Origin: Spirochaetota bacterium
GTDB lineage: Bacteria > Spirochaetota > UBA4802 > UBA5550
Assembly (NCBI GenBank): GCA_050298055.1
Contig: JBNKTL010000053.1
Coordinates: 1-32,634, forward strand
Direction of reading: 5' to 3'
Length of the DNA: 32,634 nt
Part shown: one piece after another, positions 27,001 through 32,634 of the stretch
Layout of the letters: each line of letters begins with the position of its first letter
Numbering within the stretch: position 1 is the first letter of the stretch
Position numbers: made by a program

Positions 27001-30000
27001 TTCTCTCACCGGTGATCAGTTTCGGGAGGTACTCTTCCCTGATTTTCTCGTTTGCGAACTCGTTGATGACCAGGGCGCATCCCTCCTGAAGCATGGGAGA
27101 AAGGCCAATACTGGAATCTGCCATTGAGAAGAGTTCGCCGATGGCAAAAAATGAGGTTAGGGCAAAACCGAATCCCCCGGCAGCTTCGGGCAGCGTAGTG
27201 CCGCAGAAAAGTCCCATGGATTTAAGCCTGTTCAGGTTGTCCTGCATTTTTGCGGGGATCCTGACCTCTTTCTTTCCTTTTTTTCCATCCACAAGTTCGC
27301 ATCCCTCACGATCAACTTCTTCCGCTGCGGGAATAACGTTCTTTTCACAGAACTGGGCGACCGACTGCAGTGTCATAATATATTCATCCTTCAGGCTCTC
27401 TCCGCCGTTTATCTCTGCAATCCTCTCCCAGTCGATAAACTGCTCCATGTTAAAAAGAAGGTCATCGTAGATAAGCTTGTCCATTTTATCCTCCGGTTTT
27501 GTTATATACAATCAGTTTTATTTCTTACAGTTAACTCTGTCATCATGAGGAGCAAAGCGACTAACCTGTTCCCCTCGATACAATTTGCCGCACTTTATAA
27601 AGAGCATAAAGCAGTGTATTAATAAAGCGGCAAATCACTCGGGGAACAACAGGCGCTCATCGAGTGATCCTGCATCTCGATATGCCATTTCCTAACTACT
27701 AATGAGAGCAGGATCGTATCGAGATGAGCTGCGCTCGCTATGACAGTTATTAAAATTAATTTAAATCTGTTCATCTTCTCCCCAGACAAGCACCCTCACT
27801 TCACCGTCGATATTGAAATCATATATTCACCGTGCCGGTAAACCTTTACAAAAGGTCCGTGGCAGCAGACTTCCGCAAACCTCTTCTCGACTTCCCGGTA
27901 GATCTCCACGGAGTAATCGCTGCCCCCCATACTGCTTATGAAGATGTCCTTCAGGTTGAGGTTCAGGCCCGACCCGATGGATTTCAGCACCGCCTCTTTC
28001 AATGTCCAGAAGAGCGTTATCTTTTCCTTATTAAAGCTTCCGTTTCCCCCGGACCTGAACTGGTCAATTTCCTGACTGCTGAAAGCAATCCTCAAAAATG
28101 ATCCGTCCCTGTCCTCTATCTTCTCCGCGTCAATTCCCACTCCCCTGAATTCGTCTCTTCCGCATACCAGTGAGAGGGCAATATTTCCGGAATGGGTGAT
28201 GGATATCATGAGATCTGACCGGTCACCGTTCAGCAGTATCTCCGGTTCCCCGGTATCTGTTCTTCTGATAGTGATTTCTCCCGGTTCCGGGACCTTTTCA
28301 CGACCATGGTCCCTGTAGTAGTTAACCACGGCCTCCTTCCCGGCCAGCCTTCCCGAAATAAAATCCGCCTTCCTCTTGGAGACCTTCAGCCTGTTCAGGT
28401 ACTCCAATTCCCACTCCGAGAGGTAATCGAAAAACTCGTATTCTCCCGTCTCCTTGAGGATTTTTGAAACCCTGTCTATATGAAACCGGGAGAGGGACAT
28501 CCTCTCCCTCCGGCACTCACTGATAATTGTCTCAATACCCGTATCATCCATCAGCTGCTTTAGTTTAATGATATTTTCTTCTCCTCGGGAAGTGTACCGG
28601 TTTTGATCATCCTGTACCCTTTCAGGAGCGAATAGACATTTCCCTCCGCATCGAACATCCGGGTATCGTATACCTGCTTTTCGCCCTCTGTTCCCCTGAA
28701 CTCTGAGACCACATAGAGCTCCTTCACCTCTGCCGGGATACTTCGGAAAATAATCTCCTCCATACTGTCGGGAAGTGAATTTATCTCCAGGTTTGCCATG
28801 GCATAGATCCCTGAATTCTGCAGGGCTGTCTCGATGACCAGCGGATCAGTTACCAGCTCCGGTTTTTTCGTAAAGCTGAAGATCTCGTTGTTCCTCCCGG
28901 CCATTACGCCCAGGGAACTCTTCTCGTCAACAATGATCACCGACTCAAGAACCTGGAAAAGCGGCCCGTGAAAGAAACGGGAATAGACATCCTCCTTTTT
29001 AAGGAGTCTTTCCCCGTTTTTTTTGAACTTCCCGATAATTTTTCCCAGCCTGTTTATCTCCTTCATCTTTTTGAAAGATCTCTTTTTAGCGGAGAGGATA
29101 ATCTCACCCCGGAAGTGGACCCGGGTGTCCCCGAGCTTCGTCCCATCCCTGTTGAAGAACTCCCTCTCCAGGAACGCTTCCAGGACAATATCGGTTCCTT
29201 CCACAGCTTTCTTTGCCACCCTGATGGTCATCTCAAAGGGCTCGTTTTTCAGGACTTTCAGGGGAACGAGAAAGGTGACATTTCTCAATGACATAAAGTT
29301 CATCTTCGGGTAGAGGAGCCGTGCCGCTTCCGCGAAGGACTCCATACCCATGACCGCGGGAAGCCACGGCACGCCGTCGATCTCATGGTCGGGAAGATAA
29401 ATGTCCCTGGCCGGGTCAATGGTTTTCCGGGCAGCAAGGGATATTCCGGGATTAACCTCAACCAGCCGGTCTATCATGGGATACCGGGACTTCTCCTTCT
29501 CGAGGAGTTGCGATATCCTGGCAAAATCCTTTGACTCTGTCCCCGCAATGACTCCGTGGCTGTCAATGGGGCCTACATTTCCCGCTATGATGACCTCGGT
29601 GTCGGTCCCGAAGAGAAGCTCCTCCCTGAACCGTGTCACACCTTCATCCAAGGGTATCATGTCTATCCCCGCCATTTCGAATATTTTCGCGATACTCCCC
29701 TTTGTGGCCATACCCACGTCCTTCCATCCCGACCAGTTGATGCAGAGACACTTTGTGTCCTTCATGCTTCCCCGGAGCATCTGCGCGTATTTGTTGAGAA
29801 GGTCATTTGCCGCGGCATAATCTGTCTGGCCGTTGTTCCCGAACCTTCCCGAGATGGAACCGAAGAGGACAATCGCCTTAAGCTTCTGGTCCCGTGTGAG
29901 TTCCACGAGGTTATAACATCCGTCTATCTTCACGTCCAGGATCCGGACAAAGTCCTCATACTTCTTCTCCTCCATGAGCTTGCTCTCCTCGAGACCCGCC

Positions 30001-32634
30001 CCGTGTATCAGCACGTCGATCCTGCCGAATTTCTTCTTTATCTCCTCAATGGTCTTCTTCATATGGTCATGGCTTGAGACATCACAGGGGAAGTACTCAA
30101 CCGCCCCGGCTCCCGCCTCCTTCATCTTTTCCACATTTCTGTACTTCTCTATTGCCGTAAGATATTTTCCATACTCGCGGTCGATCATCACCGGTGTGAC
30201 TCTCTCATGCTCTGCCTTGAGCCGGGCCACCACGGATTCTTTCAGCTCCCTGAGTCCCTTTTCATCAAGGGACGCGTACTTTTCGGCGTCTTCAGGGATA
30301 CCGGAGCGTGAGATGATGGCGATTTTCGGTTTATACCGCCCGGCAATCTCCTTGGCGATCTCGCTGGTTATCCCGTATCCCCCCCCGGTAATCATAAAGA
30401 CGGAACCCGGTTCTATTTCAGTTACCGGACCACCGGACCTGTCCGCTTCCCTGTAGATGACCTGGGGAGCAACACGGGTTTTCCCCCTGTAGCCCACTTC
30501 GGTCCTCCTTCCGCCGTACCGGAGTTCGGTGATAATTGCATTCGCCGTCTCTCCGTGCTTTGCGTCCAATGAGAAATCAATACATTTAACGAGCAGTCCC
30601 TCTATCTCCTTCTCAAAACTCTTGGTGATTCCCGCCACACCTCCTCCCACGGGATCACCGGCCTCAAATCCTTCAAATCCGAAGCTTCCGCCCATTTGAA
30701 CGGCAGACGCTATAAACCCCGAACCGGATTTTGCATTCTGAACAAGATCTTTCTGCGCTTCCTTTACGATGAGAAAGAGACTCTTGATCCTCCTGAAGAC
30801 CTTCTCTTTCCAGAGGTTAAAATCTGTCTTTCTGATATCCGCAGATTCCTCCAGGGGAACACAGTGGATGATACCGTTAAGGATCCCCTGTTCCCTTATC
30901 TTTCCCACTTCTTTTCTGAGGGAATCCTCCGAGCCGGGACCCTCCACTTTCAGGAGGCTGATATTTGCCCCCTCCTTCTCAAGTTTCTTCCTGAGATTTT
31001 CCGCAACGCCCTTTCCGTCATGGGTGATGAGGATATTCATCCCCTTAAAGTCCAGGGCAGCATCCTGTTTTTTCTCCAGGGGAAGCTCAACCGATTCCAC
31101 TACCATCCTTCTGATGGGGCCGGTTCCGCTCCCTGTTTCCGGGGCTTTCTCGCCGGTGGTATCGTTCACCACCGCGGCAGCCGAAAGACCGGGAGACCGG
31201 CTCTCCACGAACTGCACCACATGGTTCAGGGTGGGAAAGTCCTTTATCTGCAGATCGTCTTCACGGGGGATATTAAAGAGCTCACGGACCCTGCCGAAGA
31301 GCTCCGCCTGTTTTACCGTGTCTATCCCCAGGTCCGATTCCATGTCCAGGTCAAACTCGATGAGGTCCTCGGGATACCCCGTCTTTTCAGCCACAAGGGC
31401 AACGATCTTCTTCCTCACCTCGTCAAGTTCCGCCGGGGGTGCTGCCGCCGCTGATGCCGGAATTGCGGCTGATACCGCCGCGGCAGCCGGCGCCGGGGTC
31501 TGTGAAGGAAGATCGGGAGACTTGTCCCTGACAAACTGCACCACATGGTTCAGGGTGGGGAAATCCTTTATCTGCAGATCGTCCTCACGGGGGATATTAA
31601 AAAGCTCACGGACCTTACCGAAGAGCTCCGCCTGTTTTACCGTGTCAATTCCCAGGTCCGATTCCATGTCCAGGTCAAACTCGATGAGGTCTTCGGGATA
31701 ACCTGTCTTCTCGGAGACAAGGGCAACAATTTTCTTCATGACTTCATCAATCTTCCCCCCTGTTTCCTGCATTGATACCGCCGGTGTGGTCTCCGTCATG
31801 GATTGTGTCACAAGGGCAAGATCAGCCCGGGCCACTATCTCCGGGGACCTCTCCTGCACAAACTGTACCACATGGTTCAGGGTGGGAAAGTCCTTTATCT
31901 GCAGATCGTCCTCGCGGGGGATATTAAAGAGATCACGGACAGTCCCGAAGAGCTCTGCCTGCTTCACCGTGTCTATCCCCAGGTCCGATTCCATATCCAG
32001 GTCAAATTCAATGAGGTCCTCGGGATAACCTGTCTTCTCCGCCACAAGGGCGACGATCTTCTTTCTCACCTCGTCCAGCACTCCTCCCGGAGACGCTGTT
32101 GTCACGGCAGGAGCCGCTGCAGCAGCCGACGAAGAAGCAGCAGGAACATCGGGAACCAGAGAATCAATATCCGGGGACCTCTCCCTGACAAACTGCACCA
32201 CATGGTTCAGGGTGGGGAAGTCCTTTATCTGCAGATCGTCCTCGCGGGGGATATTGAAGAGATCACGGACGGTCCCGAAGAGTTCCGCCTGCTTCACCGT
32301 GTCTATCCCCAGGTCCGATTCCATGTCCAGGTCAAACTCGATGAGGTCTTCGGGATACCCCGTCTTCTCGGAAACAATGGCAACAATCTTCCGACGTACA
32401 ATGTCCATTCCCCCGGCGGGAGCGGCGACGGCCGATGCCGGTACTGCAGAAGAGACGGGAGAAGCTTCAGCGGGAAGATCCGGAGCCTTATCTTTCACAA
32501 ACTGCACCACATGGTTTAATGTGGGGAAGTCCTTTATCTGCAGATCATCCTCGCGGGGGATATTGAAGAGATCACGGACGGTCCCGAAAAGTTCCGCCTG
32601 CTTCACCGTGTCTATCCCCAGGTCCGATTCCATG

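Follow-up and report, generated by a model that had tools for sequence, protein, structure and literature searches.

A giant one-chain enzyme as the probable source of fatty acids in a minority of the FAS II-depleted spirochaete order UBA4802

Type II fatty acid synthesis (FAS II) has been lost across most of the uncultured, free-living spirochaete order UBA4802, and a minority of its members, including the genome studied here (G000, GCA_050298055.1), probably make fatty acids by means of a giant one-chain enzyme. The protein in question, encoded on contig C1 (Table 1), belongs to Type S, a class of secondary lipid synthases that Shulse and Allen (2011; PMC3098273) described from Desulfobacterium (Desulforapulum) autotrophicum HRM2 (protein YP_002604438). 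Judging from its sequence and distribution, we lean towards the reading that Type S would be the primary fatty acid synthase of its carriers. The window, that is, the whole 32,634-nucleotide stretch of contig C53 that was analysed, holds part of another synthase, of Type R, and the PPTase of the genome.

Table 1 Synthase-related features of G000; positions given without a contig name refer to the window
Feature	Position	Strand	Remarks
Type S one-chain synthase, 3706 aa	C1:71442-82562		Complete gene, from domain reading
3′ part of Type R Pfa-like synthase	28560..32633	(-)	Five ACPs in tandem, the first truncated; KR; double hot-dog DH of PKS type
PPTase, Sfp/HetI-size	27796..28551	(-)	Directly downstream of Type R gene
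Dispersed intergenic repeat	27541..27790	(.)	24 other matches in G000, one at window 4617-4725; depth spike
620-aa acyl-CoA dehydrogenase	25649..27511	(-)	Behind synthase-PPTase pair
5′ half (KS-AT) of Type R synthase	C38:45899-49196		At end of C38; inferred partner of window piece

FAS II, phospholipid and lipid A genes across the order

Six-frame searches of G000 returned zero matches for FabH, FabZ, free FabF and FabD, AccC, free AcpP, PlsX, PlsY, LpxC, LpxD and AcpS, in agreement with the initial annotation; positive controls matched in every family search used, and a FabV/TER search in which no control matched says nothing on the presence of either. The proposed order-wide loss of FAS II also stands: among 122 genomes of the order, 78 of them rated good, FabZ exceeds the cut-off in 4 and reaches E<=1e-25 in 6, and of 32 order genomes checked for FabF one passes the cut-off, whereas 127 of 169 spirochaetes from outside the order have a match. 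The canonical operon is missing in 119/122 species, and the canonical set (FabH, FabF/B, FabZ/A, FabD, AcpP, AcpS, AccABCD) occurs within the order only in genus g36, and not in G000. Deletion sites are gap-free both at rpmF-rnc and at lpxD-lpxA, where fabZ is lacking. A ketosynthase of any kind is absent from 64/122 genomes (37 of the 78 good ones), and de novo ACP-based synthesis is therefore not needed in the order; one of these genomes is the closed G118, which, as had been reported, has neither FAS II nor a megasynthase. The idea that one-chain synthases replace FAS II throughout the order does not hold, either synthase being found in only 25/122 genomes (17/78 good ones).

Weak FabZ matches (42/122) were considered as housekeeping FAS II and rejected, those read belonging to aryl-polyene- or ladderane-like type II clusters that carry radical SAM, LolA, MMPL, PlsY-like and FabD genes; no FabI was found in five genomes. 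Together with free FabK-like genes, these clusters might perhaps still make membrane chains in genus g21.

PlsB, named earlier as the replacement acyltransferase, is present in 117/122 genomes; of the two copies attributed to G000, one is full (854 aa) and the other is a 501-aa short paralogue. PlsY (33/122) and LpxC (10/122, including all seven genomes of family f2 and both of f5) persist in parts of the order, contrary to the supposed general loss of PlsY and lipid A, and LpxA is over the cut-off in all three LpxC-bearing genomes tested. G000 also encodes 15 acyl-CoA ligase-like proteins, 6 thiolases and at least 15 acyl-CoA dehydrogenases.

The Type S synthase, its neighbours and the loss of free ACP

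The C1 protein reads pseudoER-ER-KS-CLF-AT-KS-ACPn-KR-DH, equal to the order listed for the HRM2 synthase (ER-KS-CLF-AT-KS-ACP3-KR plus a PPTase; PMC3098273), with the C-terminal PKS-type DH and the N-terminal pseudo-ER resolved here; its orthologue at locus L098, taken from a D. autotrophicum record, is 48% identical along some 2850 aa. Across 46 full-length Type S proteins, the catalytic motifs of KS1, AT, KS3 and ER as well as the KR Tyr and DH His are invariant and the DH Asp is kept in 45; KS2 has lost its histidines. All domains of a reductive cycle are thus present with intact catalytic residues in Type S, but not in Type R, which has no ER. The modelled ER (pLDDT 92) finds its best structural match in FabK, and the two barrels of the model, together with a lost His, suggest that the N-terminal half is a pseudo-ER, the two halves matching weakly by sequence (E 0.007). 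A Pfam search found no thioesterase, MPT or second AT, and hence no release domain. The family is wide: a search across 185,579 species found 209 stretches that match it. In ER-region trees (78 rows by a quick method, and 10 rows) the spirochaete copies form long unresolved branches from which the direction of transfer is not readable. A FadR-like TetR gene lies upstream in 5/8 loci read, and the neighbours of Type S include an LPA acyltransferase of YihG type in 26/80 loci.

The synthases of G000 resemble the omega-3 PUFA synthase PfaABCDE in their PfaA-like KS-AT, tandem ACPs and KR-DH, but they score under the TIGR02813 cut-off (919 bits, and 583 and 579 for the pieces, versus 1010), G000 has neither a FabA-type DH/isomerase (PfaC) nor a free PfaD, and the ER is FabK-like and in cis. 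A true pfa set is present in G007. Fungal and Corynebacteriales FAS I is likewise a one-chain enzyme with an FMN-type ER that provides the primary supply in place of FAS II, with acyltransferases that use acyl-CoA downstream; Type S differs from it in domain order, tandem ACPs, three KS-fold domains, the lack of an MPT and its Pfa lineage. PfaA is reported to substitute for FabD (PMC8174602).

In relatives, though not in G000, a one-chain carboxylase of 1770-1950 aa (BC-BCCP-central region-CT) directly follows Type S in 10/16 genes and is missing in 6/16 carriers; BirA and BioY genes adjoin the pair in G069 and G065. A model of the central region (from 6 sequences, pLDDT 70, low global TM) retrieved, among the matches shown at E<=0.001, only yeast, Chaetomium and human ACC, which points to a eukaryote-type ACC fold. 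The same region had no sequence match in the PDB and returned only itself in a word-index search, and no full-length copy is present on plasmids. The single-chain layout is that of eukaryotic ACC and, by description, of SACE_4237 from Saccharopolyspora erythraea; the study that describes the latter places the multidomain acyl-CoA carboxylase fusion in actinobacteria (PMC6491548). The order's carboxylase is also found next to PKS-NRPS genes and type II clusters.

Free ACP over the cut-off is kept in 102/122 genomes, and 16 of 17 ACP loci of the order are rpmF-acpP-rnc remnants or their neighbours; the rpmF-rnc locus of G000 is contiguous, N-free and without acpP, and the closed genome G069 retains a decaying ACP at the old locus. 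The association between absence of free ACP and a megasynthase proved stronger than the hand-picked count of the initial annotation, since all nine good genomes (of 78) without canonical free ACP have a fully reducing type I synthase: seven carry Type S, and two a KS-AT-DH-MT-ER-KR-ACP-TE synthase that adjoins a PPTase and a one-chain carboxylase. All 37 good genomes without a ketosynthase keep ACP, as do 4 of the 16 Type S carriers of the order; because 7 of the 12 ACP-less carriers fall in one family, the losses amount to about four independent events.

Outside the order, FabF is missing in 7/20 Type S carriers versus 5/91 others among 111 Desulfobacterales (Fisher p 0.001, kin not independent). 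Among the carriers that lack FabF, G122-G124 have further Pfa-like synthases besides Type S; 13 of the 20 carriers keep FabF, so that Type S there often looks like a secondary synthase. PlsX loss was discarded as a correlate, PlsX occurring in 0/111 whatever their FabF. A core-FAS role in Desulfobacterium autotrophicum was proposed in 2011, as fabA/fabZ are missing there (PMC3098273); new here for Type S are its reach into spirochaetes, the width of the family and its links to the one-chain carboxylase, BirA, BioY and ACP loss.

The Type R locus of the window

Two Pfa-like type I synthases with a PPTase had been attributed to G000. The C1 gene is complete; the window carries only the 3′ half of the other, a Type R synthase without an ER. 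The frame of this half is open at the contig end, where it begins inside an ACP, and the piece contains no KS, AT or ER domain. A whole orthologue in G113 spans both pieces, C38 corresponding to aa 1-1107 (68%) and C53 to aa 1679-2849 (55%). Since the roughly 570 codons (1.7 kb) in between lie in no G000 contig, and contigs from three DNA runs do not bridge them, C38 and C53 are joined by inference. KS-MAT-CLF-ACP(3-6)-KR is seen in one gene in the full-length orthologues of G004 and G113; in G000 it comes as two pieces with an unassembled middle.

This arrangement matches Type R as described from Roseiflexus, Koribacter, Solibacter and Elusimicrobium, namely KS-MAT-'CLF'-ACP(3-6)-KR followed by a PPTase and often carboxylase genes (PMC3098273), an assignment based on architecture; here, unlike there, the 'CLF' keeps Cys and His motifs, a DH is present, and an acyl-CoA dehydrogenase gene follows in this order. 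The motifs of KS, AT and second KS are intact in 4/4 full-length copies, and an ER search of 80 metagenome loci gave zero matches. The PPTase lies directly downstream in 6/6 order loci. A PPTase adjoins Type S in G047, G065 and G106 but not in G000, where AcpS queries had zero matches and the window PPTase is the only one found; it would therefore have to prime both synthases. In G004, G005 and G007 a TetR gene takes the place of the dispersed repeat of G000, and the order synthase-PPTase-(TetR)-acyl-CoA dehydrogenase is kept in 5/6 loci of the order. The dehydrogenase, a candidate trans-acting enoyl reductase for Type R, recurs at just 2/80 metagenome loci, both from close relatives. The window synthase is best described as a second, ER-less module whose product is uncertain.

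Proposed mechanism, alternatives and implications

The ancestor of the order may have deleted plsX-fabH-fabD-fabG and fabF around acpP, plus fabZ, turning de novo fatty acid synthesis into an optional module. Phospholipids would be assembled by PlsB and PlsC, whose genes are present, probably from the acyl-CoA pool of these fatty-acid oxidisers. In Type S, the AT would load malonyl units, KS-CLF extend them, and KR, DH and the FabK-fold ER fully reduce the chain, held on tandem ACPs primed by the PPTase; the domains and catalytic residues are in place and a fatty acid product is predicted from them. The second intact KS might, speculatively, serve in priming or in chain transfer to CoA. Malonyl-CoA would come from the adjacent eukaryote-type carboxylase in most carriers and, in G000, probably from transcarboxylation of oxaloacetate by its OadA/PycB and MmdA-biotin carrier set; a transcarboxylase can form malonyl-CoA from acetyl-CoA and oxaloacetate (PMC8085960), and in G090 accD-accA-oadA-like genes stand immediately in front of the Type R synthase. 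With Type S in place, free AcpP and AcpS would become dispensable and decay or be deleted.

More tentatively, the order may have reached two non-standard solutions, a so far undescribed ketosynthase-free supply of acyl-ACP in about half of it and a one-chain FAS plus ACC with ACP loss elsewhere. The former, in genomes that retain AcpP, a PPTase and, in one family, lipid A genes, might be transfer from acyl-CoA to ACP or a CoA-based synthase of archaeal-like thiolase/DUF35 type; the latter, a eukaryote-like pair encoded in one biotin-supplied operon, might mean that bacteria arrived at primary type I fatty acid synthesis twice, independently. The archaeal CoA-dependent complex comprises a ketothiolase, DUF35, a reductase and a MaoC dehydratase (bioRxiv 10.1101/2024.07.05.601840). 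Similarly, the ketosynthase-less G045 clusters MaoC, SDR, an HMGS-like/DUF35 fusion and a thiolase, and G057 has MaoC, SDR and a FabH-like-domain protein together; however, clusters were found in 2/5 ketosynthase-less genomes tested, such clusters are also catabolic, and G000 is without the fusion.

Less probable than a primary role of Type S, though far from negligible, is that scavenging or a CoA-based route feeds the membranes of the whole order. In that case Type S and Type R would be secondary synthases for specialised lipids, be they long-chain, ether or hydrocarbon precursors, and the loss of ACP would have another cause. G000, with its many acyl-CoA ligase, thiolase and dehydrogenase genes, could scavenge; half of the order has no ketosynthase, its members are described as syntrophic fatty-acid oxidisers (PMC13248872, PMC7382037), and G118 holds two AMP-binding-ACP-acyltransferase fusions. 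The other gene neighbours of the carboxylase suggest that it marks any user of malonyl units, and Type S often accompanies FabF in Desulfobacterales. A review regards the pfa genes of D. autotrophicum as possible remnants (PMC4882568), which the 46/46 intact Type S motifs rule out. This explanation does not account for the restriction of ACP loss to genomes with a fully reducing type I synthase, and it leaves unexplained why the operon includes FadR-like, BirA and BioY genes, why an LPA acyltransferase adjoins Type S, and why Type S is enriched in FabF-less Desulfobacterales.

A primary or co-primary FAS role for Type R, with the linked acyl-CoA dehydrogenase as trans reductase and with both phospholipids and lipid A as outlets in f2, appears improbable. 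All seven f2 genomes do combine Type R and LpxC with no canonical FAS II, the gene order and motifs are conserved, a FabI-like neighbour occurs at two loci, and Type R has carboxylase genes beside it at roughly one in four of the 80 metagenome loci and, in the form of the accD-accA-oadA-like genes, in G090. Nevertheless, the enzyme and its 80 loci lack an ER, the dehydrogenase link may reflect linkage by descent among close relatives, f2 keeps free ACP and mostly also has a type II cluster, and biotin carboxylase is absent in 6/7 f2 genomes. Assembly or binning gaps are a very remote explanation, already refuted for the order: G000 is in 199 contigs and lacks part of a single-copy gene, but the same pattern extends across 122 genomes including the closed G069 and G118, with gap-free deletion sites and matched controls.

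To our knowledge, FAS II is regarded as near-universal in free-living bacteria, the FAS I of Corynebacteriales being the textbook exception. The ketosynthase-less half of UBA4802 raises the question of where, with FAS II gone, the acyl groups of ACP and lipid A come from. The order's one-chain carboxylase is relevant to how eukaryotic ACC arose, and a bacterial FAS and an ACC that each take up one gene would be useful for engineering. Above all, the comparative signals assembled here make testable a suggestion that in 2011 concerned one genome: that a one-chain enzyme of the Pfa lineage may serve as primary fatty acid synthase.

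Predicted one-chain synthases of the genome

The genome under study (G000) encodes two Pfa-like one-chain lipid synthases, Type S on contig C1 and Type R divided between contig C38 and the window (contig C53); both types have already been named in print, and their activity is predicted. Type S is by its domains a complete, fully reducing synthase, predicted to be iterative, in which no recognised release domain was found. A 606-base contig (C146) holds further acyl carrier protein (ACP) repeats about 90% alike to its own, and the supplement of Shulse and Allen 2011 gives the Type S of D. 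autotrophicum HRM2 as ER-KS-CLF-AT-KS-ACP3-KR plus PPTase (PMC3098273). Across 185,579 scanned species genomes there are 209 related stretches, the best 80 of which come for the most part from Desulfobacterales and include a D. autotrophicum record with 48% identity to the G000 protein. In an alignment of 46 full-length proteins (45 from the best-80 loci and that of G000), the Cys-His-His of the first and third ketosynthase (KS), the Ser and His of the acyltransferase (AT), the enoyl reductase (ER) His, the ketoreductase (KR) Tyr and the dehydratase (DH) His are invariant (46/46); the DH Asp is present in 45/46, and the histidines are gone from the second KS. When residues 1-695 are modelled (pLDDT 92), the predicted structure has its best match in FabK enoyl-ACP reductases, with PfaD further down. 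A Type S synthase with PPTase also occurs, on a long branch, in a record titled Bacteroidales (L119).

Features of the two synthase loci and of the window
Feature	Location	Strand
Type S synthase, 3706 aa: pseudo-ER, ER, KS, chain length factor (CLF)-like KS, AT, KS, two ACPs, KR, DH	C1:71442-82562	
Five tandem ACPs, KR and PKS-type DH, 1357 residues, first ACP cut by contig end	window 28560-32633	(-)
PPTase	window 27796-28551	(-)
Acyl-CoA dehydrogenase	window 25649-27511	(-)
Dispersed intergenic repeat, ~200 bases, 24 other matches in G000	window 27541-27790 and 4617-4725	

We infer that the window carries the 3' half of a single KS-AT-KS-ACPn-KR-DH synthase without ER, because a whole 2857-aa orthologue in genome G113 spans both contigs: its residues 1-1107 match C38 (68%), the end of which cuts off a KS-AT gene, and residues 1679-2849 match C53 (55%). 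The stretch between the two parts is absent from all G000 contigs, and three DNA runs gave no bridge between C38 and C53. In the scheme of Shulse and Allen (PMC3098273, as far as its text was available), this domain order followed by a PPTase marks Type R, and it is on domain order that the predicted synthase is classed as Type R. Elsewhere in the window, DNA polymerase IV, RNase H-like and MrfA-type helicase genes form one run (151-4449). Genome G007 has a true pfaD-pfaA-pfaBC set in addition to Type R (L054:3319-19785). Type R-like synthases with PPTase are also found on marine metagenome contigs (L230, L221, L220, L238 and about 20 further loci); DnaK and a thermosome subunit among the neighbours point to archaea as their source.

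Loss of FAS II across the order

A census of all 122 genomes of the order, 78 of them good (at least 90% completeness, at most 5% contamination), firmly supports two claims of the initial annotation for the order as a whole, that FAS II has been lost and that lipid assembly is based on PlsB: FabZ is over cut-off in 4/122 genomes, FabF is matched in 1/32 order genomes versus 127/169 others of a phylum sample (where one family outside the order has 0/30), and PlsB is present in 117/122. Three of the four FabZ-positive genomes belong to genus g36, which has a complete FAS II/ACC operon (MarR-fabH-acp-fabD-fabG-fabF-fabF-accB-fabZ-accC-accD-accA), probably reacquired, with a layout that we take to be Firmicute-like. 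The operon was seen behind the MarR gene in G017 and G019 (L022, L064), and sister genera in the family use Type S.

Six-frame searches of G000 with relatives' FAS II genes as queries found no FabH, FabZ, free FabF, free FabD, AccC, AcpP or BioY, in agreement with profile searches of that genome; nor were PlsX, PlsY, LpxA, LpxC, LpxD or AcpS found in it, and PlsB is represented in it by a full copy and by a paralogue of 501 aa. The acpP locus of the order lies between rpmF and rnc, the remaining fab genes having been lost (neighbours common to 16/17 loci read, with an 18th, the g36 operon, set apart); the corresponding G000 stretch on C2 is contiguous, N-free and without an ACP frame, and the single free carrier of this genome lies within an NRPS-PKS cluster on C37. 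Its best FabG-like gene, on C75, is probably catabolic, because benzoyl-CoA dearomatisation genes (had, oah, dch, thiolase) adjoin it (L068:251-5852).

Loss of PlsY and lipid A, which had likewise been ascribed to the whole order, is not order-wide, nor is loss of free ACP. Free ACP is over cut-off in 102/122 genomes. PlsY is present in 33/122, of which 31 have a type II cluster, with PlsY in or near it wherever read; the remaining two are of genus g34, and in the one read PlsY lies beside a FakAB gene. LpxC occurs in 10/122, namely all of families f2 and f5 and a 1-kb contig of G060, and LpxA is over cut-off, with lpxD-lpxA adjacent without fabZ, in 3/3 LpxC genomes tested. The large type II cluster of about 33 genomes (L013, L015, L017, L019, L081) comprises ACPs, a KS-CLF fusion, FabG, a FabZ-like pair, several B12 radical SAM enzymes, LolA, MMPL, a PlsY-like protein and a DH-PPTase fusion; in g21 and others (L049:1853-8402, L051, L052, L053), a FabF-like KS, ACP, AT, B12 radical SAM, DarB-like KS and enoyl-CoA hydratases are clustered.

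Replacement of FAS II by type I synthases stands for part of the order. By searches one of which scored only two candidates per genome, Type S occurs in 16 genomes and Type R in 11, and one or the other in only 25/122 (17/78 good), one fifth of the order. KS profile matches are found in 57/122 genomes; neither KS nor a Type S piece is found in 64/122 (37/78 good), with KS in 0/11 of f4, 0/2 of f5, 0/13 of f6 and 0/8 of g25. In thirty other genomes the KS genes belong solely to type II clusters, to PKS-NRPS or to an animal-FAS-like synthase. The order bears the name UBA4802 in the initial annotation, with which PMC13248872 agrees; the group is described as probable syntrophic fatty-acid oxidisers in the available parts of that paper and of PMC7382037. 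PPTase is kept in 5/5 KS-less genomes tested, and G032 (L271, L078) has LpxA, an LpxD-like protein, LpxC and ACP, with KS and FabH-like genes absent. Two AMP-binding-ACP-acyltransferase fusions in G118 would suit scavenging; a MaoC-SDR-HMGS-like/DUF35-thiolase cluster in G045, with a similar one in G057, is reminiscent in gene content of the archaeal CoA-based synthase, as far as that source was accessible (bioRxiv 10.1101/2024.07.05.601840); and five non-Type S genomes carry 2-6 free FabK-like genes each beside beta-oxidation genes, of which none was found in G000. We regard these fusions, clusters and FabK-like genes as leads.

Malonyl-CoA supply and the one-chain carboxylase

On contig C29 G000 has an mmdA-delta-biotin carrier-beta set and BirA, and on C1 it has an OadA/PycB-like gene, and in G090 accD, accA and an oadA-like gene lie immediately 5' of the Type R synthase. 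Methylmalonyl-CoA transcarboxylase also forms malonyl-CoA from acetyl-CoA and oxaloacetate, according to the available text of a review (PMC8085960), and G000 may obtain its malonyl-CoA by such transcarboxylation from oxaloacetate. Spirochaetes without four-subunit ACC have already been published (PMC3199775, seen in part).

By our own tally, in which some copies are cut at contig ends, 40/122 genomes encode a one-chain carboxylase (BC-BCCP-CT, 1770-1950 aa); 39 of the 40 have a synthase, and the enzyme occurs in 1/64 KS-less genomes. It lies directly behind Type S in 10/16 carriers, G069 and G065 having the order synthase-BirA-carboxylase-BioY, and a TetR gene with a weak FadR match stands 5' of Type S in 5/8 loci read. 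The central 510 residues have no PDB sequence match; a predicted model of this region (6 sequences, pLDDT 70) matches, among the listed matches at E<=0.001, eukaryotic ACC central domains only. A bacterial multidomain ACC is already known from Saccharopolyspora (PMC6491548, accessible portion). The one-chain carboxylase also occurs with PKS-NRPS and type II clusters and is therefore a marker of malonyl use, not of FAS as such. In other lineages, long carboxylase-like genes lie immediately behind Type R synthases (L201:8449-14058 and L222:8463-13805), and the match between the L201 gene and the one-chain carboxylase of this order lies mainly in its BC domain.

Type S as a possible housekeeping synthase

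Three signals favour a housekeeping role of Type S: the ACP pattern, the one-chain carboxylase described above and a second, independent lineage. Canonical free ACP is absent from 12/16 Type S carriers versus 8/106 others and, among the 78 good genomes, from 7/9 versus 2/69, and it is kept in 37/37 KS-less good genomes. Because 7 of the 12 ACP-less carriers are of one family, these losses amount to about four independent events, not twelve. The two ACP-less good genomes without Type S have a KS-AT-DH-MT-ER-KR-ACP-TE synthase beside PPTase and one-chain carboxylase, as read in G059 and, for G060, taken from equal length and position. In G059 (C4, L029:9397-17859) this animal-FAS-like gene is followed by PPTase and then the carboxylase, possibly a third FAS solution in the order.

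The second lineage is that of the Desulfobacterales, with 111 genomes taken from the order to which a Desulfospira record belongs, 90% completeness being requested. Full Type S is present in 20 and FabF absent from 12, namely 7/20 Type S carriers versus 5/91 others (p 0.001, rising to 0.003 when the centre genome is left out, kin not being independent). Of the FabF-less carriers, the five that were tested keep PlsB as well as free ACP; PlsX, which they lack, is found in 0/111 genomes of this lineage. At 26 of the best 80 loci, Type S has a YihG-type LPA acyltransferase as a neighbour. Against a housekeeping role, 13/20 Type S carriers of this lineage keep FabF, and the FabF-less carriers examined also have other Pfa-like synthases.

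In the portions of the literature available to us, Shulse and Allen 2011 proposed a core-FAS role of Type S for one genome (PMC3098273), PfaA is able to stand in for FabD (PMC8174602), and a review calls such pfa-type genes possible remnants (PMC4882568). A literature search with thin coverage of subscription journals, in the texts it reached, returned neither a test of Type S nor any account of this order having lost FAS II.

On balance, the evidence leans towards Type S being the primary FAS of its carriers. What is new lies in the Type S operon with its eukaryote-type carboxylase, in the pattern of ACP loss, in the second lineage and in the majority of genomes that lack a KS.
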